Positions 11,539-30,416 of a stretch of DNA of 30,416 bases are shown here, piece after piece. Below the pieces are notes generated by a model, which saw only the letters and a list, made by a program, of their open reading frames with translations, ran no database searches and was not told the origin of the DNA. The stretch is from an archaeon. GTDB taxonomy: Archaea > Aenigmatarchaeota > Aenigmatarchaeia > CG10238-14 > SCSR01. Location of the stretch: positions 1 through 30,416 of the forward strand of contig DATDXT010000033.1 of assembly GCA_035289185.1 (NCBI GenBank). Reading direction: 5' to 3'. Each line of letters begins with the position of its first letter. Positions within the stretch are counted from its first letter, which is position 1. A program made the position numbers and the translations under genes.

Positions 11539-12339
11539 TCAATGTCGCAAATCCAGGACACGTCTGCTCATGTAAAGTACAAAGATTGCAAGCAGAGGAA
11601 ATCCTAAAAACACCACGATGTTCAATGTAAGACCTGAGTATGTATTTGGAAAATCTGCTATATAGAAAAGAGTACCTAATGCAACAAAGTAAATCAATGT
11701 GCTGTAGATCAATTTGCTGAATTTTCTTATGTCTTTGAACTGGTAGTAGAGTATGCTGTATGCAACTGAAAGCAAAAGTATCATCTGGAACAGCATGTAT
11801 ATTCCAAAAGTGCTGTAAAAAGGTTCTGCCATGAAAATTAACTGCCATAATCCAAGATCTGTGCCTCCTCTTACGTCTTGGGTATATCCAGAAGTCACTG
11901 TGTAGCACCAAAAGAAGTCATGCAGGTTGTTTGCAGCGAATCCTATGAAAAAGAAAGCAGCAAAAGTAAGTAAGAAATTCCTCATTGGAAATCTTTTTAT
12001 TTTAAGCAGGAACAGTGACCAGAAGTCGGCGAATGCAAAAGGCAGTAACATGAACAAAGAACCTCCATAGAGCCAGAAACCAAAATTCCAAAGCTGTGGC
12101 AGTCCAAGTGCTTTGGCATGGAAGTTAGCTGCCACGAAAATTATAAAAATGAAAAGCGAAACAGAGAAACAGACTTTCAGATTATAGAAATTTTTAAGTT
12201 TCTTTCCAGAAAGGAACAATTTTGGTTTTTTCTGCACGAATCTTTTTAATTTTCCTGTCAGAAGAACATATGCAAACCCCGCGTAAAGAAGCGCGAAAAT
12301 TATTGCCACATGTAAAGTTTTTGCAAGTTCAGGAGTCAT
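11539..12339 (-). CDS. Polytopic membrane protein of unknown function
   Basis: About 266 aa with multiple long hydrophobic segments (about 7). The ATG at 12339 shares one base with the TGA stop of the upstream nucleotidyltransferase (TGATG), which suggests translational coupling. Confidence 0.7.
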   Translation of the reverse strand: MTPELAKTLHVAIIFALLYAGFAYVLLTGKLKRFVQKKPKLFLSGKKLKNFYNLKVCFSVSLFIFIIFVAANFHAKALGLPQLWNFGFWLYGGSLFMLLPFAFADFWSLFLLKIKRFPMRNFLLTFAAFFFIGFAANNLHDFFWCYTVTSGYTQDVRGGTDLGLWQLIFMAEPFYSTFGIYMLFQMILLLSVAYSILYYQFKDIRKFSKLIYSTLIYFVALGTLFYIADFPNTYSGLTLNIVVFLGFPLLAIFVLYMSRRVLDLRH

Positions 12340-13208
12340 CAAGCATCATCCAATTCAGGCAGATCTTCTCCAAGCAATTCCTCTGGTAAAAGCTTCTTGA
12401 ACCTTTCTATCATGTCCTTTGTCAGAATCAATGCCTTTTCCAAATGATCTGTTGTTACGTCTTTCACAATCTTGTGGTCTATGTCTTTCCAAAGCTTGTC
12501 CAATTCGGCGAACTTGTCTATGAAGTCTCTTTCCAACTTACCTTCTTTTACCAACTTCTCTAAAAACTCAGGAGCTTTCTTGTAGTCAGGCTGCTCTTTG
12601 AAATGGTGCATCACGACAGCTTGCACTATGTCCAACATCGTGTATCTCAATTCAAAAATCATCGATTTGATATCCAATCTTATTCTCTTTAATCTTATTT
12701 CAGCCGACTTGGCTTTCAATGTTATCGTCTCATCACTCGGAGGAATCAACCCCATTTGAAGCATCTTCTGCACAGGTTTTATGAAACCATTGTCGAAAAT
12801 AGGCAGACCGTATCTCAAAAAGTTTACAAACTCAGGCGATCCTACTCTTATCGATTGCCAGAATGCAGTCAGAGTATGAACTTGCACGTGGAGGTCTTTT
12901 ATCTGTGATGCTATGTGATGAAGGTTGGCCTGCACTCTGTTCAAATCCTCGCTTGATTTTGTTGCAGTATCATCCAAAAGAACCCAAACATCCACATCGC
13001 TTGTCTTCTTTGCATCTCCTCTTACTACAGAACCGAAAATCAGAACTGATTTTATAATGTCACCATACATCTTCCTGGCTTCGGTAGCAAACTTCACTGC
13101 CCTGGAATAGATTTCCCTAGAAGTTTCATCCTTAAACACATCCTTATGCTGATCAATCTTCACAAGCTTCGTATCTTCAAGCTCTCTTTCCAGTTTGTCC
13201 AATGCCAT
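12339..13208 (-). CDS. Pol-beta superfamily nucleotidyltransferase with a helical C-terminal (HEPN-like/KNTase-C-like) extension
   Basis: 289 aa with the minimal NTase motif GSVVRGDAKKTSDVDVWVLLDD (GS...DxD). The C-terminal half is all-helical and I see no clear Rx4-6H motif. Confidence 0.8.
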   Translation of the reverse strand: MALDKLERELEDTKLVKIDQHKDVFKDETSREIYSRAVKFATEARKMYGDIIKSVLIFGSVVRGDAKKTSDVDVWVLLDDTATKSSEDLNRVQANLHHIASQIKDLHVQVHTLTAFWQSIRVGSPEFVNFLRYGLPIFDNGFIKPVQKMLQMGLIPPSDETITLKAKSAEIRLKRIRLDIKSMIFELRYTMLDIVQAVVMHHFKEQPDYKKAPEFLEKLVKEGKLERDFIDKFAELDKLWKDIDHKIVKDVTTDHLEKALILTKDMIERFKKLLPEELLGEDLPELDDA

Positions 13209-13239: not shown

Positions 13240-13911
13240 CTATTTCATCTGCATTACAACGAATAAATGATGTTTCTCATAAGGATCCAATTTGACTTGA
13301 TCCAAGATCTTGAAATGCTTTTTAAACTGTTCCAATGATTCTTCATAGATTTTTTCCGGTCTTTTTGTCACGTCTATTGACTGGCTTTTGATTGCTATCA
13401 TCGCGAACCCGCCAGGTTTTAGGAATTTCTCACAGTTTCTTATCAATATCGGTATCTGGTCATCGCTTGCAACATCCTCGTAAACCAAATCCATCTTTTC
13501 CATTACCATCTTCTCATACATCTCTGGCATCCTGCCATCTCCTAGTATAGGAATCATGTTGCCTCTTTTCTCGCATATCCTTATGGATTCTCTAAGGCTC
13601 CTCTCGGAAATCTCCACTCCATAAATTATACCATTCTTTCCTACGATGTCGCTGAAGAACGATGCAGTCTTCCCTTCAGCCAGTCCAAGATACAAAACTT
13701 TCATGTCTTTCTTCAATGGAAAAGTCTTTAATTTCTGTCTCATTGCAGCGCTAGGTTTTGACGTGTAAGAATCCCATGTCCTGTATTCTATTCCATCAAC
13801 TGTGACCAGTTCTTCGTTTGAGCTTTTGAACCCTGGAACAAGATTTATGGTAGCAAATCTTCCGTCAACATTAAAAATACCTTCAAACTTTGTTTTTTCT
13901 ACTCTCATCAC
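13240..13911 (-). CDS. flpA: Fibrillarin-like rRNA/tRNA 2'-O-methyltransferase
   Basis: 223 aa with the SAM-binding block VLYLGLAEGKTASFFSDIVG. Sits in conserved synteny immediately after nop5. Confidence 0.93.
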   Translation of the reverse strand: MMRVEKTKFEGIFNVDGRFATINLVPGFKSSNEELVTVDGIEYRTWDSYTSKPSAAMRQKLKTFPLKKDMKVLYLGLAEGKTASFFSDIVGKNGIIYGVEISERSLRESIRICEKRGNMIPILGDGRMPEMYEKMVMEKMDLVYEDVASDDQIPILIRNCEKFLKPGGFAMIAIKSQSIDVTKRPEKIYEESLEQFKKHFKILDQVKLDPYEKHHLFVVMQMK

Positions 13912-14992
13912 TATCTTTGCTCTCTAACACTTCTTTGACTTTTGCATCAAGTTCTTTTTTCATCTCTTTCGACCTGTCATCTTTTGAGAAAAAGTCTATC
14001 TTAGCAGCCATCGATATCTTCGATGCAAGAACCCTTGCTAACTTCCCTCTTTTCTCGTCAGGCGAGCCTTGTATCAGAGGATGGAAGAATATTATTCCGT
14101 ATTTTGGTGATCTATTATTGCCCCTTGAATGTAAAAATCTGAACAGAGCCTTTTCGCTTCCTAACAGTTGTATCGTGTTGGACGTCATCTTTGCAAGCCT
14201 GTCTATGCCGCCTGCCTTTGAAATAAGTTTTGATGCTATGCTTGTGCCTGCTATCTCTGAAAGGTTTGGAGCCATCTCCTTCAATACACTCTCCAGATAT
14301 TTTGAAAGCCTTTCCCTAATCTCATTCAGGCTTCTTATCTGAGCAGCAAATGCCTGTATCTCTGCAACATCCAAATGAGACAGTTCAATCCCTATGCTTT
14401 TTTCTGCAAGCTTCTTCAGATGCTCCTCGTCTATCTTGTCTCTGCTTCCGAACTTTTCCACCAGCTTGACGAACCTTTCGTGGCTTTCCACATTTCTGTT
14501 TATCTCAGGGAAATGCAATCCGTACCATTCTCTCAACCTTTCCACAAAAATGTTAACAGACTTGTCTATCTCTTCCATGGCCCTGTTGACCTGCATGATT
14601 ATGACATCTCTCTTGACAGATTTTTTTATGTCGCTCTTTGTCATTTCTATGTTTGTCTTTGTAAGCAATTGATTAAATTCCAACCTGTCTTTCACGAAAT
14701 GGTGCTTCAAAGACAGCTCGAAAAGGTGTTCTTTCACGTAAGCTTCAGCAGAATTGTTTTCCTCGAATTCCTGCACTCCTGGTTTCCTCTTGCTGAAGAC
14801 TATATGCTTGTATCCTCTCTTTTCCAATTCTTCGTACAGTTCCTTTTCCTCTTTCAAAAGCCTGTTATCTGCTTCTGTGAACCTGCTTATCATTACTTGC
14901 ATGTCTTTAGGGAAAGGCCTGAAGCTAACGACCTTGTTTCCATCATCCACGGCAAAAGTCCCGATTAAGCTGTTCACTATGTAGACTTTCAT
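13883..14992 (-). CDS. nop5: Nop56/58 (Nop5) C/D box sRNP core protein
   Basis: 369 aa with NOP domain GSEKALFRFLHSRGNNRSPKYGIIFFHPLI. Overlaps the flpA start by 29 nt. Confidence 0.93.
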   Translation of the reverse strand: MKVYIVNSLIGTFAVDDGNKVVSFRPFPKDMQVMISRFTEADNRLLKEEKELYEELEKRGYKHIVFSKRKPGVQEFEENNSAEAYVKEHLFELSLKHHFVKDRLEFNQLLTKTNIEMTKSDIKKSVKRDVIIMQVNRAMEEIDKSVNIFVERLREWYGLHFPEINRNVESHERFVKLVEKFGSRDKIDEEHLKKLAEKSIGIELSHLDVAEIQAFAAQIRSLNEIRERLSKYLESVLKEMAPNLSEIAGTSIASKLISKAGGIDRLAKMTSNTIQLLGSEKALFRFLHSRGNNRSPKYGIIFFHPLIQGSPDEKRGKLARVLASKISMAAKIDFFSKDDRSKEMKKELDAKVKEVLESKDSDESRKNKV

Positions 14993-15028: not shown

Positions 15029-15898
15029 ATGGAATGGTACATTTTCGCCCTATTGTCGGCAGTTTTCAGTAGTTTCCTGCCTATAATCAACAAAAAGGTC
15101 TTGAAGAAAGTAAGCCTCATGGACTTCTCTGCCGTCTATTCCATATTGACTTTCCTCTTCAGCCTTAGTTTTCTATCGCTGGTCAAGATAACTTTCGATT
15201 TGAAGGTAATTTTTCTTATATTTTTGGGTTCAGTCTTCAGTACTCTTGGGTTTTATGCGATTAACAAAGCAATCAAACGAAGTGCTGTCTCTCTTGTATC
15301 TCCTTTGAGGAGTTTCAACCCAGTCGTATTGCTCATAATGTCCATGTTCTTGCTCGGAGACAAGATTAATGCTTCAAACATAGTGGGGATAGCTTTCATA
15401 GTGCTCGGTGCGTATGTGATAGAAGCAAGGGACATGCTGCACAAGCCGCTGGAACCATTAAAAAGGATGCTCAAGTCTAGCCTGCTATTTCTAATAATGT
15501 CTTCTGCCATCTTCTACGCAGTCTCTTCAATCATAGACAAGGTGGTGCTTTCATTCTATGACATATTCGGATTCTTCGTCTTGATACATCTTTTCATAGC
15601 CCTTAACTTTTTCGTTATAAATATCTTGGAGACCAGAAGACTTCCATGGAACGGCCATATAAAATCTTCCTTTTCTTTGATAATCTTGGCATCTGTAGTT
15701 ACCATATTTTCCAGAATATTTCTTTTGCAGTCAATATCTTTGGGCATAGTGTCTCTTGTAATTGCTATAAAGCATACAGACACACTGATTGCGACTACGA
15801 TAGGCGGCGAGATCTTCCACGAGAAGCATCTGAAGAAGAAGATAGCGGCCGCTTTTATAATGTTGGTGGGAGTGATGTTCGTTATTTTAAAACCTTAA
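15029..15898 (+). CDS. EamA/DMT-family transporter
   Basis: 289 aa with about 10 hydrophobic helices arranged as two EamA-like halves. Divergent from nop5 across only 36 bp. Confidence 0.8.
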   Translation: MEWYIFALLSAVFSSFLPIINKKVLKKVSLMDFSAVYSILTFLFSLSFLSLVKITFDLKVIFLIFLGSVFSTLGFYAINKAIKRSAVSLVSPLRSFNPVVLLIMSMFLLGDKINASNIVGIAFIVLGAYVIEARDMLHKPLEPLKRMLKSSLLFLIMSSAIFYAVSSIIDKVVLSFYDIFGFFVLIHLFIALNFFVINILETRRLPWNGHIKSSFSLIILASVVTIFSRIFLLQSISLGIVSLVIAIKHTDTLIATTIGGEIFHEKHLKKKIAAAFIMLVGVMFVILKP

Positions 15899-19549: not shown

Positions 19550-20890
19550 ATGGTATTGGAAGACCTTGGAGGAGGATTGAAAGCAGCTTTCAACAGGCTG
19601 GTATCCTCAGTCACAGTGGACAAGTCATTGATAGAGCAGACAGTCTCAGACATAAGAAGGGCTTTAATTCAATCAGATGTAAATCTCCAGCTTGCAAATG
19701 ATATTGCAGACAAAATAAAGAAAAGATCGATGGAGGAAAAGACACCTTCTGGCATGAGCAAGCGTGAACAAGTAGTAAAGATAGTATACGAAGAGCTCGT
19801 GAACATGCTTGGAAAGAAGTTCCAGCCATTGAAGCTTGACAAGAAACCATCCATCATACTTATGGCAGGCTTGCTTGGAGCAGGAAAGACCACAAGCACG
19901 GCCAAACTGGCAAGATACATACAGAAGCAGGGAAGGAATGTCGGAATCATAGGAGCAGACGTCTACAGACCAGCGGCTTTAGCGCAATTGGAACAGTTAG
20001 CAAAGCAGATCAACGTCCCAGTGTACGGTGAAAAGGGAAATAAGAATGCTGTGAAGATTGTAGAGAACGGGATGAAAGAGTTTGCGAAGAAAGATGTCAT
20101 CATTATCGATACAGCAGGCAGGTACAAGCAGTCAGAAGAGTTGATGAAGGAGATAAGGCAGATAGGCGAAAAGGTCAAGCCGGACGAGACCATACTCGTC
20201 ATCGATGCCACTATAGGACAGCAGGCCAAACAACAGGCTGAAGCATTCCACAAGGCAGTTCCGATTGGCAGCGTGATGATAACAAAGATGGATGGTACTT
20301 CAAAAGGCGGAGGCGCGTTGAGCGCTTGCAGTGTCACTGGAGCTAATGTCAAGTTCATAGGAATGGGAGAGAAGATAGACAGCCTTGAATTGTACGATCC
20401 TGACAGGTTTGTTTCCAGGATGTTAGGTTTGGGTGATTTGCAGACATTGCTGGAGAAGGTGAAGGAGACAGGAGTCAGCAAAGAATCAATGGAAAAGATG
20501 ATGGAAGGAAAATTCACATTGCAGGACTTCATAGAACAGATAGAGAATGTAAGCAAGGTAGGATCTTTATCGCAGATAGCAGGAATGATACCTGGGTTTG
20601 GCAGCGTGAAACTGCCTAAGGAAGCATTGGAGAAGCAGGAAAGAAAGATGAAGATATGGAAGTTCATAATCCAGAGCATGACAAAGAAGGAGAGAGAGGA
20701 TCCAGCGCTTGTTGATGCAGCTAGAATCAAGAGGATAGCAAAAGGTTCTGGCAGGCAGGAGATGGAAGTAAGGGAATTATTGAACCAGTACAGTTCAATG
20801 AAGAAGATGATGAAGGGACTTGGCGGAGTAAGAGGAATGGATAGGGGTCAGATGAAGGAATTGGCCAAGCAAATGGGATTGAAGTTTTGA
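19550..20890 (+). CDS. srp54: Signal recognition particle protein SRP54
   Basis: MVLEDLGGGLKAAFNRL..., GLLGAGKTTSTAKLA, DTAGR, TKMDGTSKGGGALS, and a Met-rich M domain. The ORF-track start at 19466 is a TTG, and the homologous N-terminus begins at the ATG at 19550. Confidence 0.95.
   Translation: MVLEDLGGGLKAAFNRLVSSVTVDKSLIEQTVSDIRRALIQSDVNLQLANDIADKIKKRSMEEKTPSGMSKREQVVKIVYEELVNMLGKKFQPLKLDKKPSIILMAGLLGAGKTTSTAKLARYIQKQGRNVGIIGADVYRPAALAQLEQLAKQINVPVYGEKGNKNAVKIVENGMKEFAKKDVIIIDTAGRYKQSEELMKEIRQIGEKVKPDETILVIDATIGQQAKQQAEAFHKAVPIGSVMITKMDGTSKGGGALSACSVTGANVKFIGMGEKIDSLELYDPDRFVSRMLGLGDLQTLLEKVKETGVSKESMEKMMEGKFTLQDFIEQIENVSKVGSLSQIAGMIPGFGSVKLPKEALEKQERKMKIWKFIIQSMTKKEREDPALVDAARIKRIAKGSGRQEMEVRELLNQYSSMKKMMKGLGGVRGMDRGQMKELAKQMGLKF
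20863..20890 (+). repeat. Direct repeat copy 1: the functional 3' end of srp54 (AKQMGLKF*)
   Basis: GGCCAAGCAAATGGGATTGAAGTTTTGA recurs at 21960-21987 with 23/28 identity by my manual alignment. Both copies encode AKQMGLKF-stop. Confidence 0.8.
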
Positions 20891-20897
20891 GTTATCA

Positions 20898-20913
20898 TGT
20901 AACACGTGTTACA
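20898..20913. promoter_or_regulatory. Perfect 16-bp palindrome TGTAACACGTGTTACA
   Basis: Read directly from the sequence, 8 nt after the srp54 stop. CACGTG core. Confidence 0.6.
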
Positions 20914-20921
20914 CAGCCAAA

Positions 20922-20968
20922 TTTTGTAGTCACCTATATACAAAAAGTTTATATATTGTAGTCACCTA
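20922..20968 (+). repeat. Two direct copies of TTGTAGTCACCTA flanking the fic TATA box
   Basis: TTGTAGTCACCTA occurs at 20924-20936 and 20956-20968, 32 bp apart. TTTATATA (20948-20955) lies between them. The second copy sits between the TATA box and the ATG. Confidence 0.8.
20948..20955 (+). promoter_or_regulatory. Putative TATA box for fic
   Basis: TTTATATA lies 22 nt upstream of the ATG at 20978 (leaderless geometry). Confidence 0.45.
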
Positions 20969-20977
20969 ATACTTATT

Positions 20978-21928
20978 ATGCACGTGGAAATAAGGAACGT
21001 TGGCAGAAAGAAAAAATATTACCTTGCACACTCATTCAGGCATGATGGGAAGGTCAAAAAGTTCAGATTTTATCTTGGAACTGATTTGACAAAAACAGAA
21101 TTAAACGACAAAATAAAACACGCAAAGGAAATTTTGGATGAGAGGATAAAAGCATATGGAAAAGTAGGAGACCCGTTCTATACAGTTATTACATCCAAAG
21201 AATTGGAATATGTAAAACATCTGGAAGATAAATACAGGATGGAAGAAATAAAAGTTTTGCACCTGTCTGAAAAAAACTGGGCCGAATTTACAAAAGCATT
21301 CACATACGATACCAATGCCATAGAGGGATCCACCGTGACTTTTACAGAAGTCTCTGACATATTGGAAAAAAAAGAATGGCCTAAAGAAAAGCAAAAATGG
21401 GAGATATCTGAAACATATGGAGTTGCGGAAGCCGTTGATTTCATAAGAAATTCTAGGGAAGACATCTCTTTAAAATTGATAAAAGAACTCCACAGGATTG
21501 TGTTCAAGAATTCCAAGGATTTTGCAGGCAAATTCAGGAAGAATGGAGAGGAGGTCGCTGTAGTGGACGCCTTTGGCAATATAAAACATAGAGGAGCCCC
21601 ATCATCGCAGATTGTCAGGCTTCTTAATGAATTGATACGTTGGTATGGCAAAAACAACCGGAAATATCCTGCATTGGTGTTGGCTGCTGTGGTACACAAT
21701 CATTTTGAAACTATACATCCATTCAAGGACGGAAATGGGAGAGTCGGAAGGCTTTTGTTGAACAACATATTGTTGAAGCACGGTTTGCCGCCCGTCAACA
21801 TAGAGCTGAAAAGCAGGCAGGAATACTACAGGGCACTGCAGGAATATCAAAAAATGAGGAATCTTCGACCAATGATAGAGCTTATATTGAGAGAATACAG
21901 GAGATTTATGAAAAGCCTGAACAGGTGA
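20978..21928 (+). CDS. fic: Fic-domain protein (AMPylator-type), class II with an N-terminal inhibitory helix
   Basis: 316 aa. Canonical Fic motif HPFKDGNGRVGR (HxFx[D/E]GNGRxxR). Upstream inhibitory motif TNAIEG ([S/T]xxxE[G/N]). Confidence 0.92.
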   Translation: MHVEIRNVGRKKKYYLAHSFRHDGKVKKFRFYLGTDLTKTELNDKIKHAKEILDERIKAYGKVGDPFYTVITSKELEYVKHLEDKYRMEEIKVLHLSEKNWAEFTKAFTYDTNAIEGSTVTFTEVSDILEKKEWPKEKQKWEISETYGVAEAVDFIRNSREDISLKLIKELHRIVFKNSKDFAGKFRKNGEEVAVVDAFGNIKHRGAPSSQIVRLLNELIRWYGKNNRKYPALVLAAVVHNHFETIHPFKDGNGRVGRLLLNNILLKHGLPPVNIELKSRQEYYRALQEYQKMRNLRPMIELILREYRRFMKSLNR

Positions 21929-21954
21929 CTACATTTCTATGTTTTGTAGTCACC
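21924..21954. repeat. Perfect 10-bp inverted repeat GGTGACTACA-N11-TGTAGTCACC (hairpin) overlapping the fic stop codon
   Basis: Read directly from the sequence. The left arm contains the fic TGA (21926-21928). The right arm is the same TTTTGTAGTCACC found at 20922-20934. Confidence 0.8.
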
Positions 21955-21959
21955 CAGTC

Positions 21960-21987
21960 GGCCAAGCAGATGGGATTGAAATTCTAG
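21960..21987 (+). pseudogene. Displaced remnant of an srp54 3' end (AKQMGLKF*)
   Basis: GGCCAAGCAGATGGGATTGAAATTCTAG. It differs from 20863-20890 only at CAA/CAG, AAG/AAA, TTT/TTC and TGA/TAG, which are all synonymous or stop-to-stop. Confidence 0.7.
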
Positions 21988-26917: not shown

Positions 26918-27313
26918 ATGAACGATATGTGGACTGAGAAAGACGGCTTATCGCATTTGAATATGCTACCAAATTTATTGGTGGCATTGGCCGAGGGTAA
27001 CGGTTCCTTGAGAAAATATTCTGAAACAAGATATGGTTTAGCTTCTGTAACCTACAAAATCAGAATAAGAGAATATTCTTTGCGTTTGGAGGACGGCACA
27101 GATGTTCTATATAAAGTAGAAGAAGATGGCATACAAAAATTACAAGAAACCATAAAGCTAAATGGAAAGGTTGCGTTTGAAAGACCAAATGTTATTAATT
27201 TCGAAAACACATTCTACGAATTTAATCCACGATCAAAGCTAGATAAGTTGCATGAAATAAATAAGCATGAAATAAATAAGCATGAAATAAAAAAGTTTGT
27301 AGACTTAGGCTAG
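26918..27313 (+). CDS. Hypothetical protein with a C-terminal HEINK tandem repeat
   Basis: 131 aa with GGTGAGG (SD) 5 nt upstream of the ATG. The 3' end overlaps the convergent cca stop by 9 nt. Confidence 0.5.
   Translation: MNDMWTEKDGLSHLNMLPNLLVALAEGNGSLRKYSETRYGLASVTYKIRIREYSLRLEDGTDVLYKVEEDGIQKLQETIKLNGKVAFERPNVINFENTFYEFNPRSKLDKLHEINKHEINKHEIKKFVDLG
27251..27295 (+). repeat. 15-bp tandem repeat x3 (CATGAAATAAATAAG), encoding HEINK-HEINK-HEIKK
   Basis: Read directly from the sequence. The third copy has one mismatch. Confidence 0.9.
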
Positions 27314-28741
27314 ATTTTCCTTCTCAAAATAAGTCCTTAAAAATATACAAAAATCTTCATTCGCCATCAAAGCTTTGGAAATAGAATCTGCATCCGAATA
27401 AATCCTGAACCCTTTCATCATCTGCTCTGCTATGTAGTTCGGTATTCCCTTAGCCTTCAGTGTGTTTATGTCTTTTTTCAAGCTATCGACAAGCTTGTCC
27501 CTCGCGTTCAAGAACCTTCTTTCTATCTCCACAACCCATTTATCATTCTCTATAAAAGGACCGTTGATGATGTCTCCTTTCATGTATTTTTCAATGAACC
27601 TCTTTGCATCGTCTACGTCAAAAACGCTAGGTCCGATCCTCTTTTGAACATTGGGCAGATTCTCATAAAATTCCATCTCCAATAAAACTACAGCAATGTC
27701 CTTATCGTTCGTATAGACGTCCTTTCTCAAGACCTTGAACTCATTTTTAGTTTCTTCCAGTATGCTTTCTATCCTGTCTGCGAACTTCCTCAATTGTGGC
27801 CAAAGAATATCAGGAACAACCTTCGGAGGATCCATCTTTACCACCAGAAGCCCTGTGTTTCTTTTCTCTAGATAACTGGTCAGTTCTGCAGTAGTCAACG
27901 GCTTTACATTCTTTTTGATGAAAAATGATTTTGCAGGCTCTTTTAAGAAAGCTTTTACAACTTTTATAAGTTTGAAGAAATTCTCTGGCGAAACAGCGGA
28001 TGCAACGTTCCTGTTCTTGTCTGTAGGGTCTATCAAAACCAATGCCTCCCCCCTGAACTTGTGATTCAGGCTCTTGTAATCCTTCTTATCATAGTATTTT
28101 TCCGTGTCTATAATTTCCCCAGGCTTCCAGTCTGCAATGTTTTTCAAAACGTTCATGAATTTGCCATAGTTTATTACCAGTACTTCGCATGCATATCCAG
28201 ACAAACCTTGCGCTCTAGCATCAGCGCCATAGACTCCACCAGCTTTGCATAATTGCTTCAAAAGTCTGACCTCATCTGAAAGCGATTGTGGCAGGTTCTT
28301 GTCAAGATATCTTACATGGAAAGGTGTCCTATCAACTGCAGACTTTATCTCCTTCGTAGATTCTACAGCATAACAAGGCACTATGTCCACTTGCATTCCA
28401 TCGATTTCGCCTGTCACATAAGGATGCTGCGCATATTCCACCCAAGACGTTCCTTTCAACCTTTTGATCACCGCCCTACCTACAGATATCCCTATGTCTT
28501 CCAGTTCCTTCTCTGGCAGGCTTTTGGGAAAAACAAGGAAAACATCGCATTCTTTCTTGTCAGGCAGCCATGTATTCCTAGTAACGCTTCCAGCAGACAT
28601 CGCTTCTGCACCATACTTTTCTATCTCTATGTCCGCAAAAGCAACAATCTTCTTAGACAAAGTCTTTAGCTTTTCCTCGTCTTCCTTGCTCGGCTTTACT
28701 ATCTTCAATGCTTCGTTGATGACTTTCTGATAATTGTCCAT
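27305..28741 (-). CDS. cca: Archaeal class-I CCA-adding enzyme (tRNA nucleotidyltransferase)
   Basis: AGSVTRNTWLPDKKECDVFLVFP matches the GS...ExD catalytic block of archaeal CCA enzymes. The homologous N-terminus starts at MDNYQKVINEALKIVKP (ATG at 28741). The ORF-track ATG at 28774 lies inside the putative TATA box. Confidence 0.92.
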   Translation of the reverse strand: MDNYQKVINEALKIVKPSKEDEEKLKTLSKKIVAFADIEIEKYGAEAMSAGSVTRNTWLPDKKECDVFLVFPKSLPEKELEDIGISVGRAVIKRLKGTSWVEYAQHPYVTGEIDGMQVDIVPCYAVESTKEIKSAVDRTPFHVRYLDKNLPQSLSDEVRLLKQLCKAGGVYGADARAQGLSGYACEVLVINYGKFMNVLKNIADWKPGEIIDTEKYYDKKDYKSLNHKFRGEALVLIDPTDKNRNVASAVSPENFFKLIKVVKAFLKEPAKSFFIKKNVKPLTTAELTSYLEKRNTGLLVVKMDPPKVVPDILWPQLRKFADRIESILEETKNEFKVLRKDVYTNDKDIAVVLLEMEFYENLPNVQKRIGPSVFDVDDAKRFIEKYMKGDIINGPFIENDKWVVEIERRFLNARDKLVDSLKKDINTLKAKGIPNYIAEQMMKGFRIYSDADSISKALMANEDFCIFLRTYFEKENLA

Positions 28742-28760
28742 AAATTTATTTTCTATCTGC
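28721..28760 (+). repeat. Direct repeat copy 1: the cca start codon region
   Basis: GACTTTCTGATAATTGTCCATAAATTTATTTTCT... recurs at 29261-29300. Identity is 31 of the first 34 nt and 33/40 overall by manual alignment. It contains the reverse complement of ATGGACAATTATCAGAAAGTC (MDNYQKV). Confidence 0.75.
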
Positions 28761-28773
28761 AAGACTATAATCA

Positions 28774-28781
28774 TTTATAAA
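28774..28781. promoter_or_regulatory. Palindromic TATA box TTTATAAA, possibly shared by divergent cca and relB
   Basis: It lies 21 nt upstream of the relB ATG (28803) and 32 nt upstream of the cca ATG (28741) on the opposite strand. Confidence 0.4.
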
Positions 28782-28802
28782 CTGTAGTAACAATAGGAAT
28801 TT

Positions 28803-28988
28803 ATGACAGAGCTTGAAACTTTGCATGCAGAAATAGATGAAATAAGGTCAAATGTGACAAAGATACTATTCATACTTGAAAACGAAGGCGAAGTAAATAA
28901 AAAAGTATTGAAAGAGCTGAAAGAAAGTAAAAGTGCTACAAAAGACAAATTCTTGCCCCACGAAACTCTTAAGAGATCTTTGAAATGA
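28803..28988 (+). CDS. relB: Archaeal-type RelB-like antitoxin
   Basis: 61 aa, helical and charged, resembling archaeal aRelB as I recall it. ATGA stop/start overlap with the downstream RelE gene. Confidence 0.7.
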   Translation: MTELETLHAEIDEIRSNVTKILFILENEGEVNKKVLKELKESKSATKDKFLPHETLKRSLK

Positions 28989-29242
28989 CATGGCATATAG
29001 AATGGTACAGAAAGGCCGCAAAAAATCTGGAATCTTTACCCAAAGAAATTCGTGATAGAGTTGTTAAATACATAGACAAAGTTCAACAAGCCCCATTTAA
29101 TTTTCTAGAACACTTTGAGCTGAAAGGCTATTATAAAATCAGAGTAGGTGATTATAGGGCAATTGCTTCTGTAGATTTTCAAAACAAAATCATTTCTATT
29201 ATTATATTTGATCATAGGAAAAGAATTTACAAAAGACTTTAA
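28985..29242 (+). CDS. relE: RelE/ParE-family toxin (mRNA interferase)
   Basis: 85 aa. WYRKAAKNLESLPKEIRDRV...YYKIRVGDYRAIASVDFQNKIISIIIFDHRKRIY is a typical RelE/StbE pattern. Confidence 0.88.
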   Translation: MTWHIEWYRKAAKNLESLPKEIRDRVVKYIDKVQQAPFNFLEHFELKGYYKIRVGDYRAIASVDFQNKIISIIIFDHRKRIYKRL

Positions 29243-29260
29243 TAAGTTCCATTATAAAAA

Positions 29261-29300
29261 GACTTTCTGATAAATGTCCATAAAATTACTTTCTGTTTAG
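29261..29300 (+). repeat. Direct repeat copy 2: orphaned pseudo-start of cca
   Basis: GACTTTCTGATAAATGTCCATAAAATTACTTTCT... On the minus strand it reads ATGGACATTTATCAGAAAGTC (MDIYQKV) and then hits a stop after a few codons. Confidence 0.75.
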
Positions 29301-29416
29301 TTAAAGAAAAATTAGGAATGTTATACGTATAACAAATCATATAATTACTCAAAAATGGTGAAAAAGTTGGGTATTTAAAGTTTAATTTTCTATAGAAAGT
29401 TAAGAAAGTGATTAAA

Positions 29417-29899
29417 ATGGAAGAAGGTCTGACAGCAGGACAGCAAGAACTTGTAGACAAACTAGATAAAATTATTGATAAATTAGATAGCAGACATGGA
29501 TATGTTGACAGCGAAAGTCTAAGACATAATGTGGAAAGCATGTATAACTTAGGAATGTTGAATTATGATGGTGGTTTTAAAAGAACAGTTGCAGGAAGAG
29601 AATCTTCTATACCAAATGAAATGCTAGAAGTCGCAATTGCCCTGTACGTTGATAAGTCTCTTATTAAAAAATTGAGAGCCTTGGCAGCAGCGAATGACAT
29701 AGAACTCGATCCAAGCAAGGTCAGATATGTCGTAGCTTTATACGGATTGGATAAAGAAGAAAAGGGATATGTGGTGGAGCTTATTAAAAACCATGAGGAG
29801 AGATGGGGAAAGAGGATTGAAGATGGTGTTTTGTACAGACCAAATAAAGAAAATGTGGCAACGATAACAGATTTATTGTCAAGAGAAGATGCCAAATAA
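29417..29899 (+). CDS. Hypothetical protein
   Basis: 160 aa from the ATG at 29417, preceded by AGTGAT (SD-like). The ORF track uses the GTG at 29408. No motif recognised. Confidence 0.55.
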   Translation: MEEGLTAGQQELVDKLDKIIDKLDSRHGYVDSESLRHNVESMYNLGMLNYDGGFKRTVAGRESSIPNEMLEVAIALYVDKSLIKKLRALAAANDIELDPSKVRYVVALYGLDKEEKGYVVELIKNHEERWGKRIEDGVLYRPNKENVATITDLLSREDAK

Positions 29900-29992
29900 A
29901 CTGCATATTTCTATAATTACTCTAAAGTAGTCAATAATTAAAGCTTTATATACTTAAGAAGCATAATAATTGTAACTAAAAAGTGGTTACAA

Positions 29993-30416
29993 ATGACAGG
30001 AACAAAAAGCAATTATGTGAGTGAATGGAAAACAGTTAGTGACAATAGTCTCTTGGAAATCATGCCAGAATTTTTAATCGATTGGATAATAAGAGGTTCT
30101 AATGAGCAAGGCAGAGGAATAGATGAATATACTATAGAGCCTAAACACAACCCATTAGCAGCTTATTTTCAAAAACTTGGTATTAAGACAGATAGACAAG
30201 TAGGATGTTCTGTTATAGAATATATAAGAGTGACAAATTCTGGTGCACGTTATGTTTACAGAAGCCTATCACCACGTGATCATTATGAAACAGATTCTGA
30301 AACGAAGCTTAACAGGGTAGAACAGATACTTGTCGGAGACTCTGTAAAATTGGAAAGAATTGTAAGAGAAGAGCTGGTTAAAGTAGAAGAAAAGTATAAT
30401 GATCCGACACGTTTCT
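29993..30416 (+). CDS. Partial CDS (N-terminal 141 codons, runs off the window end), hypothetical protein
   Basis: My own translation from the ATG at 29993 is open to the window end: MTGTKSNYVSEWKTVSDNSLLEIMPEFLIDWIIRGSNEQGRGIDEY... It is absent from the ORF track because it has no stop in the window. Confidence 0.5.
   Translation, partial: MTGTKSNYVSEWKTVSDNSLLEIMPEFLIDWIIRGSNEQGRGIDEYTIEPKHNPLAAYFQKLGIKTDRQVGCSVIEYIRVTNSGARYVYRSLSPRDHYETDSETKLNRVEQILVGDSVKLERIVREELVKVEEKYNDPTRF

Follow-up and report, generated by a model that had tools for sequence, protein, structure and literature searches.

A RelE-type toxin module between two copies of a cca gene start in an aenigmarchaeon: a probable insertion with 34-bp target duplication

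The cca gene and the cassette beside it

The stretch of DNA analysed here, a contig of 30,416 nucleotides from a member of the Aenigmarchaeota (the window), carries on its minus strand (27305–28741) cca, the gene for the archaeal CCA-adding tRNA nucleotidyltransferase (478 aa; TIGR03671, E = 1.3e-132), which also gives Pfam matches to tRNA_NucTransf2, CAA_C and NTP_transf_2. The true start of cca is MDNYQKV at 28741. An open reading frame of 489 aa from 28774 was rejected as an over-extension, since homologs are 473–480 aa in length and have an N-terminus of the form MxxYxKV.

Upstream of cca and divergent from it lies a small cassette on the plus strand. It begins with a palindromic TATA box, TTTATAAA (28774–28781), located 21 nt before the ATG of a 61-aa gene in the position of relB (28803–28988, from the open reading frame list), the putative antitoxin gene, whose stop codon overlaps the start of the next gene by 4 nt (ATGA). 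This second gene (28985–29242) encodes a protein of 85 aa that matches PF05016 (E = 6.8e-11; 43 bits against a cut-off of 23) and the PHROG RelE-like toxin (E = 4.5e-14); its score with the TIGR02385 RelE_StbE model, 17.4 bits, lies below the cut-off of 27.9. The best match among solved structures is 1WMI_A, Pyrococcus horikoshii PHS013 (aRelE), aligned over the full length (E = 2.8e-7), with Arg at the equivalents of R65 and R85, Lys at R58 and Phe at R40. Arg65 and Arg85 of aRelE are reportedly important for function, their roles being attributed to work by Takagi and colleagues from 2005. Judged from these matches, the 85-aa protein is a RelE/ParE-superfamily toxin closest to archaeal aRelE, and together with the upstream partner this bears out the proposal, made in an earlier note on this DNA, that a relBE-type toxin-antitoxin cassette is situated at the cca start. 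The 61-aa partner had no match in Pfam, NCBIfam, PADLOC or PHROGs and its best PDB match (E = 0.22) was unrelated, such that searches of five databases did not make it recognisable as RelB or as a member of another known antitoxin family; population SNPs in its gene comprise four synonymous changes and one non-synonymous change.

Homologs of the toxin, each with a small upstream partner, are found in unrelated contexts in other Aenigmarchaeota. The partner is 61 aa long in two of these loci (L014/L015) and 75–123 aa, as called, in others (L016–L019). The L014/L015 module is 75% identical to the cassette and keeps the TATA box at an equal distance from the gene in an unrelated context; DNA homology to the L014 module runs from the TATA box to the relE stop, limits that define the mobile unit and indicate that TTTATAAA is the module's own. 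The same geometry (8-mer, 21 nt, ATG) is seen in the window at FtsZ, at a Fic gene and at the gene at 12339–13208, and this spacing supports the suggestion that relB is transcribed from the palindromic box as a leaderless message, which is a prediction. The GC content of the cassette is 30% compared with 41% for cca, and neither relB, relE nor the adjacent 160-aa gene (see below) was detected near cca in any of 83 related cca loci. The GC difference, the unrelated contexts of the homologs and their absence beside cca elsewhere show the cassette to be foreign.

The duplicated cca start and its flanks

The cassette is bracketed by a direct repeat of 34 nt, the left copy of which (28721–28754; GACTTTCTGATAATTGTCCATAAATTTATTTTCT) comprises codons 1–7 of cca and 13 nt of leader (−13 to +21). 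The right copy (29261–29294; GACTTTCTGATAAATGTCCATAAAATTACTTTCT) is identical at 31 of the 34 positions, both copies having been recovered by reading the sequence and with a repeat finder, and the start-to-start spacing of 540 nt leaves 506 bp of DNA as the insert between them. The earlier note had described such a duplication 540 bp apart, with the left copy as the reverse complement of the cca start MDNYQKV plus leader and the right one as an orphan MDIYQKV that soon terminates, and all of this stands: the orphan mini-ORF (29252–29281, minus strand) reads MDIYQKVFL-stop and runs into a T5 tract on that strand. Outside the repeat, the limits of which the note had proposed to define, similarity ceases abruptly, with 5/21 and 6/21 matches by eye in the adjoining 21 nt on either side. 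The statement that only a palindromic TATA box and the relB-relE pair lie between the copies is correct in that both are there, but the insert also includes a 19-nt junction segment (28755–28773) carrying a second TATA-like box.

The surroundings are AT-rich (31% GC over 29001–30000), as would suit a chance similarity in low-complexity DNA, an alternative that the note itself had named and that can practically be dismissed. With up to three mismatches allowed, the 24-nt core of the repeat occurs twice in the window and in none of 100 dinucleotide shuffles; direct repeats of at least 21/24 at spacings of 60–3000 nt number two pairs in the window and none in 30 second-order Markov simulations. 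For the equivalent 34-nt start segment at 71 other Aenigmarchaeota cca loci, the best direct match upstream averages 19.5/34 and reaches 25/34 at most, and the upstream region of the ancestral cca is colinear with the flank of the orphan. The repeat is no artefact of assembly, as independent assemblies (L001, L008) have both copies. It is thus confirmed as real and exceptional.

Beyond the orphan, positions 29295–29416 represent a remnant of the ancestral divergent intergenic region, colinear with the p45/cca intergenic regions of L011, L030 and L031. The remnant includes TTTCTTTAA (29309–29301, minus strand), located 19 nt before the orphan ATG, and also holds a GAGTAATTATA motif together with the TATA box and leader that now serve a 160-aa ORFan gene, p160 (29417–29899, plus strand). 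In relatives with 62–67% cca identity there is one cca start, which lies beside p45, and the flank of the orphan aligns with their intergenic region, so that by its sequence this flank still looks like the ancestral cca promoter region. In the three closest relatives the neighbour of cca, in divergent orientation, is the gene pair p45/p51; in the window p160 occupies the place of the small p45 gene, within a lineage-specific islet between cca and p45/p51 as judged from synteny. The 160-aa protein has no family match, and searches for it returned only population copies. A 26-nt repeat flanks its gene (29340–29365 and 29912–29937; 21/26 bases), which is a hint only because it fails the 21/24 screen and overlaps a motif conserved in the intergenic regions of relatives.

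The relB-cca spacer is 61 bp, and within it the relB TATA box stands back-to-back with the TATA-like box of the junction, ATTATAG (28765–28771, minus strand; ATTATAA in the V haplotype, see below). The latter is 23 nt upstream of the cca ATG, and TATAATCATTTATAAA is kept between the two population haplotypes while neighbouring bases vary. From TTTATAAA to the cca ATG the distance is 32 nt. TATA-ATG spacings at cca of other Aenigmarchaeota and at the clear cases in the window are mostly 20–24 nt (range 17–24), and because its distance fits these values ATTATAG is predicted to be the most likely core promoter of present-day cca, in preference to the palindromic box, which the earlier note had suggested could serve cca as well as relB; both assignments rest on spacing rules. 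As both boxes are situated in inserted DNA, the data support the broader part of that proposal, namely that whatever core promoter serves cca now belongs to the insert, although the better candidate is not the palindrome and the 19-nt junction that carries it lies outside the module as delimited by homology to L014. Between the old promoter and cca the minus strand has T5–T6 runs at 29256, 29020 and 28899. The further suggestion that loss of the cassette would entail loss of cca expression, as a second form of addiction, is weak, because recombination between the 34-nt copies, most likely the principal route of cassette loss, would rejoin cca to the intact-looking ancestral promoter of the orphan.

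Some 25 metagenome contigs from the population all carry the cassette, including all 19 that encode the exact RelE protein and all 22 that encode the exact 160-aa protein, and the cassette is fixed in this population. A scaffold with no gene after p160 (L002) owes this to a run of Ns, and another with an odd left end and a frameshift in cca (L003) is probably a chimeric scaffold end. The right copy is invariant in all population contigs. The left copy exists as two haplotypes, W, as in the window, and V (GATCTTCTGATAATTATCCATAAAGCTATTTTCT), the latter belonging to a divergent patch (28592–28765) with 17 synonymous and four non-synonymous codon changes; a second divergent import occurs at 28046–28175 in L009. 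The V patch spans the left repeat and the junction, and the cassette is nearly identical in both haplotypes. Since the patch crosses these features, the sister lineage from which it came, L021-like at 90% in cca, has the same junction, and the cassette would be older than the split from that lineage, which differs by about 18% at the DNA level. Alleles in which cca directly adjoins the region from 29301 onward, the comparison that the earlier note had called for, were absent from the data searched: the pattern expected of an empty junction had no match in JGI metagenomes, where a search for close relatives of cca yielded a homolog at 56%, a fragment of 1.1 kb at 90% and nothing else, a first cca scan of GTDB genomes yielded nothing, look-ups of the exact RelE and 160-aa proteins returned filled sites only, and the exact 478-aa cca protein and SRP54 (19550–20890) had no database record. 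Insertion is therefore inferred from the relatives with 62–67% cca identity only.

Origin of the arrangement

The window contains a second instance of the same layout. The last eight codons and stop of SRP54 (AKQMGLKF*; 20863–20890, plus strand) are followed by a Fic/DOC-family gene of 316 aa (20978–21928, plus strand; PF02661, E = 1.7e-21) that resembles the SoFic defence gene (PADLOC SoFic, E = 2.7e-35; PDC-S04, E = 1.9e-36), and then by an orphan copy of the SRP54 3′ end (21960–21987, plus strand) in which 23 of 28 bases match. All five differences between the copies are synonymous or stop-to-stop, such that the peptide AKQMGLKF is preserved, which hints at recombination between diverged lineages rather than duplication in situ. 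Homologs of relBE elsewhere also lie between direct repeats, unrelated in sequence; L017/L018 have repeats of about 47 nt and L019 has repeats of 148 nt. L019 is array-like, its toxin-antitoxin cassettes being parted by an element of about 60 nt that is present three times. Repeats matching at 24/30 or better have a background rate of 20 per 641 kb. A 16/20 repeat flanking the L014 module was too weak to count, and a repeat match in L054 is apparently due to chance.

We consider it probable that a relBE module was inserted with duplication of 34 bp of target and thereby displaced cca from its old promoter. A RelE-type module of about 0.5 kb, with its own leaderless promoter, would have entered the transcription and translation start region of cca in this DPANN archaeon, duplicating positions −13 to +21. 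The left copy would have remained with the body of cca, leaving the gene intact, and the right copy with the old promoter as an orphan start, and cca would now be read from ATTATAG, in DNA brought by the insertion or arisen at it. The insertion would have proceeded without an integrase or transposase encoded nearby, and the type of event would be that termed 'insertion with long target duplication' for bacterial restriction-modification modules. Neither integrase, transposase nor recombinase genes were detected in the 30-kb window (Pfam, long ORFs), nor integrase or recombinase genes on the population contigs; the Pfam matches to the long ORFs of the window are restricted to housekeeping genes, Fic and relE, six ORFs being without a match.

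An unlikely alternative to insertion is one-sided homologous recombination (homology-facilitated illegitimate recombination) with a diverged lineage that already had relBE beside cca. A homologous join in the 5′ coding region of cca and an illegitimate join on the other side would have displaced the cca start and promoter of the recipient as the orphan, so that the two copies would be orthologs from two lineages, an explanation that has been proposed for orphaned gene ends at T6SS and Rhs loci (PMC5361080). Diverged DNA has been imported exactly here, as the V and L009 patches demonstrate, but the divergent V tract does not continue through the module, which is near-identical in both haplotypes. 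That the five SRP54 differences spare AKQMGLKF and the stop is expected for two functional orthologs, and Ile3 of the orphan is a plausible functional variant, given that L011 has Val there; synonymous-only differences could, however, also result if most changes hit the functional copy. Furthermore, this course needs two events, as relBE must already have been acquired by the donor, at a point 13 nt before the cca ATG. A mini-element integrated site-specifically, with the 34-nt repeats as attL and attR and an integrase acting in trans or since lost, appears improbable. Here the element would carry the end of the target gene and so rebuild the gene on integration, as e14 and phage 21 do at icd in Escherichia coli. 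Sharp-edged direct repeats that overlap a gene terminus, and the array-like L019, are in keeping with such an element, but against it stand the absence of an integrase or recombinase gene noted above, the unrelated sequences of the repeats that flank relBE modules (L014, L017, L019), and the lack of a tRNA target, the 30-kb window containing no tRNA gene. Nor is there an attC-like hairpin in the repeat region and spacer, which have no significant folding (z-scores from −1.7 to +1.4) and, at this region, no Rfam family, and 2.9 million viral contigs contain no copy of the 24-nt core of the repeat. Likewise, no support was found for an origin of the cassette in viruses or plasmids, searches of viral contigs with this core and with RelE having been unhelpful. 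An integron gene cassette was rejected because the DNA following relE shows no more folding than shuffled sequences (z +0.76 and +1.40) and no integrase was found; the L019 repeat, on reading the sequence, has no self-complementary arms. A transposon, IS or MITE was rejected because no inverted repeat was listed at the ends of the insert, the duplication is 34 bp rather than 2–15 bp, and no transposase was found.

Whether the orphan has been kept for a function is a separate matter, which would add to an origin by insertion and not replace it. The transcript of relBE, with or without p160, would include 34 nt complementary to the cca mRNA at its 5′ end and start codon and could thus repress cca in trans. 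The plus strand has no T-run of five or more between the relE stop and p160, making read-through through the orphan plausible, and a duplex energy of −44 kcal/mol is predicted, where shuffles average −14. Complementarity is, however, automatic for a direct repeat between divergent genes. The orphan is invariant in all contigs where the real start has two haplotypes, but this invariance extends over the entire cassette and flank in a near-clonal population, and genomes with the V haplotype match at only 27/34 positions, their orphan having no compensating change. Such regulation is improbable.

Known systems and implications

Insertion with long target duplication is said to have been described for restriction-modification gene complexes by Nobusato and co-workers in 2000. 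In bacterial restriction-modification modules, the repeats produced in this way exceed 30 bp and consist of host sequence that differs among insertions and frequently overlaps an adjacent gene's terminus, and no archaeal case passed the filter of the survey (Furuta, Abe and Kobayashi, 2010; PMC2853133). The cca locus resembles these in having a small addiction-type module without mobility genes between direct repeats of host sequence, those at cca (34 bp), at SRP54 (28 bp) and at the related loci (about 47 and 148 bp) differing in length. Set against the survey's criteria of repeats longer than 30 bp around a complete module, no mobile-element gene and an insert below 20 kb, the cca repeat is 34 bp around promoter, relB and relE, and the insert is 506 bp and free of mobile-element genes. 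Unlike the restriction-modification cases, these modules consist of a type II toxin-antitoxin pair and of a Fic gene and belong to a DPANN archaeon, and the duplication at cca extends across the start codon of an essential gene and parts the gene from its promoter; moreover, the restriction-modification class is defined by an empty site in a related genome that has the repeated sequence once and aligns on both flanks, and at species level the data searched contained no empty site for cca.

With regard to the module itself, the likeness is to aRelE-aRelB of P. horikoshii (PHS013/PHS014, PDB 1WMI), with which it shares a toxin alignable over its full length, including the GDYR motif and the C-terminal R-x-R-x-Y-K of 1WMI chain A, and a small upstream partner overlapping the toxin start; in contrast to aRelB, the 61-aa partner, known from sequence, has no detectable similarity to RelB families or solved structures. 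At T6SS effector-immunity, Rhs and CDI loci displacement leaves orphaned gene ends, and successive events give rise to arrays (Kirchberger et al., 2017; PMC5361080). There too a new toxin-type module lies beside a conserved gene with the orphan end pushed to its far side, and L019 is array-like, but what is displaced at those loci belongs to the same system, namely 3′ toxin domains and immunity genes, whereas here the displaced parts are 28–34 nt termini of cca and SRP54, which are unrelated housekeeping genes. A report on Microcystis aeruginosa describes a toxin-antitoxin module between direct repeats (PMC7935541), which, unlike relBE at cca, is bacterial. We rate relBE at cca as a probable further case of an already described type of insertion, now involving a toxin-antitoxin pair in a DPANN archaeon.

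The movement of toxin-antitoxin and restriction-modification modules that lack mobility genes still awaits an explanation, as does the mechanism of long target duplication, even in bacteria. One route of such movement leaves this duplication as its trace, and nearly all documented cases come from bacterial restriction-modification systems. The window provides two clean examples, one of which severs an essential tRNA-maturation gene from its promoter, and related Aenigmarchaeota loci add more, all in small DPANN genomes. A bolder suggestion, advanced tentatively and with well under even confidence, is that small toxin, antitoxin and defence modules are generally inserted without an integrase at the ends of essential genes in DPANN archaea, duplicating 25–150 bp, and that the orphan cca start in the 3′ region of relBE could be an antisense regulator. 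Were there such a process, it would yield orphan gene starts and ends, sometimes cassette arrays, and core genes with a promoter or terminator derived from the module; relBE/cca, Fic/SRP54, L017 and L019 would be four of its products. Should the pattern extend to DPANN genomes at large, orphan gene termini would provide a simple marker of recent module insertions and a handle on their mechanism, and, as the relBE/cca case suggests, a selfish module can come to supply the regulatory DNA of a core gene.

The duplicated cca start and the relBE cassette

A 34-nt direct repeat brackets the relBE cassette at the start of cca, with copies at 28721-28754 (GACTTTCTGATAATTGTCCATAAATTTATTTTCT) and 29261-29294 (GACTTTCTGATAAATGTCCATAAAATTACTTTCT) detected by sequence reading and by a repeat finder (family D8). 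The copies are identical at 31/34 positions, are spaced 540 nt apart and have sharp edges, beyond which similarity drops off at once; they form the top-ranking repeat of the window. The 24-nt repeat core, at no more than 3 mismatches, occurs exactly twice in the window and in none of 100 dinucleotide shuffles, and a scan of the entire window for direct repeats (at least 21/24, spacing 60-3000 nt) returned two pairs, compared with none in 30 second-order Markov simulations. When the equivalent 34-nt start segment was sought in the 3 kb upstream of cca at 71 other Aenigmarchaeota loci, the best direct match averaged 19.5/34 and reached at most 25/34. Both copies are present in independent assemblies. 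The duplication proposed in the earlier note is confirmed, and chance similarity in AT-rich low-complexity DNA, which that note had named as a refutation, is excluded.

The minus-strand ORF at 27305-28741 is cca, its product identified as an archaeal CCA-adding enzyme by TIGR03671 (E = 1e-132) and by Pfam domains. Because its homologs are 473-480 aa long and begin MxxYxKV, the true start is MDNYQKV at 28741, and the 489-aa ORF from 28774 is an over-extension; the names of these homologs assign the organism to Candidatus Aenigmarchaeota. On the plus strand, an 85-aa RelE/ParE-superfamily toxin (28985-29242; PF05016, E = 6.8e-11; PHROG RelE-like, E = 4.5e-14) aligns end to end with its best solved relative, Pyrococcus horikoshii aRelE (1WMI_A). 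Its start is overlapped via ATGA by a 61-aa relB-position gene (28803-28988, plus strand), whose product has no family or structure match and is an antitoxin by position only. Codon changes in relB-relE within the population comprise 8 synonymous or stop-to-stop and 4 non-synonymous, a pattern that fits genes that are still functional.

The relBE module is foreign. Its GC content is 30%, lower than that of cca (41%) and of the window (39%), and the toxin homologs inspected (P0122, P0126 and P0127; 45-75% aa identity) have a small partner upstream and occupy unrelated gene contexts, flanked by glycosyltransferase and RHS-like genes, adjacent to a HepT/MNT pair or next to a further ParE pair. 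Because the DNA alignment with the locus of the 75% homolog (L014/L015) spans from AATC-TTTATAA to the relE stop, the mobile unit consists of a TATA box, relB and relE, and TTTATAAA (28774-28781) is a promoter element of the module itself.

Beyond the population, the closest cca relatives share just 62-67% identity. At three related loci (L011, L030 and L031) a pair of small paralogs, p45 and p51, is divergently adjacent to cca across a gap of 130-178 nt, and one or the other also lies upstream of cca in several more distant relatives. Gene order in the population is cca, relB, relE, p160 (a 160-aa ORFan), a variable gene, p45, p51 and OTCase; in 83 related cca loci, tblastn detects neither relB or relE nor p160 or the variable gene. 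Judged by this difference in gene order, ∼1.75 kb of lineage-specific genes now occupy the former cca/p45 intergenic region. The orphan and its flank (29261-29419) are colinear with that ancestral region (intergenic alignment A3), comprising a p45-side leader and TATA box, next a TTTCAC...AGTAATTAT block and finally, 19 nt ahead of the orphan ATGGA, a promoter-like TTTCTTTAA; because of this colinearity, the orphan is the former cca start, still joined to its former upstream region. The p45 and p51 genes (45 and 51 aa, without family; L001 2206-2500, L011 5583-5871, L031 2795-3092) are conserved divergent neighbours of cca in several Aenigmarchaeota lineages.

Putative promoters of relB and cca

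Several window genes with an upstream intergenic region show a TATA-like 8-mer followed after 20-24 nt by ATG, most clearly FtsZ, Fic and the genes at 12339-13208, 13883-14992 and 15029-15898. The other Aenigmarchaeota cca genes inspected mostly have CTTTATAN or TTTAAA, then 20-22 nt (range 17-22) and ATG. Such spacing suggests a leaderless design, to which the relB geometry (TTTATAAA, 21 nt, ATG) is an exact fit, bearing out the placement for leaderless relB transcription read earlier. At 11539-13208, a 289-aa minimal nucleotidyltransferase-domain protein (NTP_transf_2/Polbeta) overlaps a 267-aa family-less protein in operon-like fashion, with a leaderless promoter (TTTATAAAA and 21 nt) as for relB; this pair, amid an RNA polymerase/fibrillarin neighbourhood, may be of toxin-antitoxin or defence type.

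The palindromic box had been proposed to drive cca also, yet it lies 32 nt from the cca ATG, whereas ATTATAG (28771-28765, minus strand; ATTATAA in V, one of two haplotypes of the left copy) lies at a better-fitting 23 nt. Since, moreover, TATAATCATTTATAAA is kept across haplotypes while surrounding bases vary, the sequences favour two back-to-back TATA boxes rather than one shared box. Both map rightward of 28754, where the DNA came to be upstream of cca only with the insertion, and we infer that the cassette probably supplies the core promoter of cca, as the earlier note proposed, although via ATTATAG. On its way to cca, a transcript starting at the old promoter would meet T5, T6 and T6 tracts on the minus strand; such tracts are archaeal termination signals. 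That cassette loss would entail loss of cca expression holds for imprecise deletions only: the two 34-nt copies are an obvious deletion substrate, and recombination between them would restore the ancestral arrangement with its intact-looking promoter. The interpretation in the earlier note is thus supported in part.

With cca and relBE transcribed away from each other, the orphan is placed downstream of relE in the sense direction, so that a relBE read-through transcript would include 34 nt able to pair, at 31/34 positions, with the start of the cca mRNA; no T-run of at least 5 precedes p160 in the relBE direction. Duplex prediction gives -44 kcal/mol for this pairing, compared with -14 in shuffles. 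Such complementarity follows automatically from the geometry, and any use of it would be hypothetical.

Variation within the population

The cassette lies between cca and p160 in 19/19 contigs with an exact RelE and 22/22 with an exact p160, from several ENA and JGI samples, and a junction-pattern scan of JGI metagenomes yielded no match to an empty site; the empty-site alleles envisaged previously were thus not found. Population contigs are near-identical to the window bar a patch (28592-28765) with ∼40 differences, in which the first 50 cca codons carry 17 synonymous and 4 conservative non-synonymous changes, the hallmark of a short tract imported from a functional but diverged ortholog. Because this patch spans the left repeat and 11 nt of the junction, the donor lineage shares the cca-cassette junction, and the insertion predates the split from that lineage. 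One contig (L023) is a recombinant with its breakpoint within the 34-nt repeat; the orphan copy shows no variation among population contigs.

The cca mosaic comprises patches at 28592-28765 and 28046-28175 (∼130-175 nt each; contigs L002-L007, L009 and L023) that are ∼17-23% divergent, mostly synonymously, in otherwise identical surroundings, one covering the cca start and cassette junction. In L003 (1-110) a V-type cca start is followed by a frameshifting 5-nt deletion, and the terminal ∼70 nt (1-70), where cca codons past ∼30 are expected, are unrelated to cca; this is probably a chimeric scaffold end, or less probably a cca pseudogene variant. The gene after p160, at which many contigs break, has no family match and exists in a 140-aa and a 163-aa allele (window 29993-30416; L001 1781-2203; L005 1478-1969) with 31% aa identity (51/165 alignment columns), near-identical flanks and a common start, ATGACAGGA, which is also that of p51.

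Recurrence of the pattern and probable mechanism of insertion

Of the two strong direct repeats in the window, the second surrounds a SoFic-like Fic/DOC gene (20978-21928; PF02661, PADLOC SoFic and PDC-S04) between SRP54 and a Beta-lactamase2-family gene. The last 8 codons and stop of SRP54 (20863-20890) are repeated at 21960-21987 with 23/28 identity; both copies read AKQMGLKF-stop and 5/5 differences are synonymous or stop-to-stop, a layout that mirrors relBE/cca. Within 20899-20966 and 21924-21954, the Fic cassette also contains TTGTAGTCACC in three direct copies (∼20924, ∼20956 and ∼21944) and one inverted (GGTGACTACA, ∼21924), and a perfect 14-nt palindrome, GTAACACGTGTTAC (20899-20912), shortly past the SRP54 stop, similar to GTTATACGTATAAC (29320-29333), 26 nt past the cca orphan; operator or terminator roles for these sequences are possible.

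In other Aenigmarchaeota, the relBE homolog of L017/L018 is flanked by a repeat of ∼47 nt (79% identity, spacing 660 nt; L017 489-535 and 1149-1195) of unrelated sequence. L019 (1-1400) has a 148-nt repeat (99% identity, spacing 655 nt) and a third copy of 49 nt past the neighbouring ParE pair. Three copies of a ∼49-60-nt element separate its relBE unit, an incomplete relE copy upstream and the ParE pair, which looks like a small cassette array or a tandem amplification. Background repeats (at least 24/30, spacing 300-1500 nt) numbered 20 per 641 kb, mostly within paralogous genes. A weaker direct repeat (29340-29365 and 29912-29937; 21/26, TATAATTACTC...), below the significance screen, brackets the 160-aa ORFan and may mark an earlier insertion of this type; the stretch ahead of the following gene (29938-29992) is similar to the ancestral leader of p45 (GTGGTTAC-ATG).

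The window belongs to the core chromosome, with genes for RNA polymerase subunits, fibrillarin/Nop5, prefoldin, FtsY, SRP54, FtsZ and cca. It contains no integrase, transposase or tRNA gene; terminal inverted repeats are absent from the insert, as is any hairpin from the repeat region. Site-specific integration is improbable, the window having no integrase and the loci no common attachment sequence. One-sided homologous recombination with illegitimate joining, as suggested for T6SS and Rhs loci (PMC5361080), would strand the end of the recipient's gene as an orphan. In its favour are the purely synonymous differences between SRP54 copies and the proven import of diverged DNA at the 5′ end of cca; it is nonetheless rather unlikely here, since the donor must already have carried an insertion and the divergent tract seen in the population does not cross the cassette. 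We infer instead, as the likelier course, that the module inserted with a long target duplication of the cca start. Insertion with long target duplication was defined for restriction-modification modules by repeats >30 bp of variable, host-derived sequence, often overlapping a gene end, without mobility genes (PMC2853133), a footprint matched here; no archaeal case passed that study's filter (PMC2853133). The cassette is a new archaeal toxin-antitoxin case of this known kind of insertion; its anatomy is well resolved, and the window contains another example.
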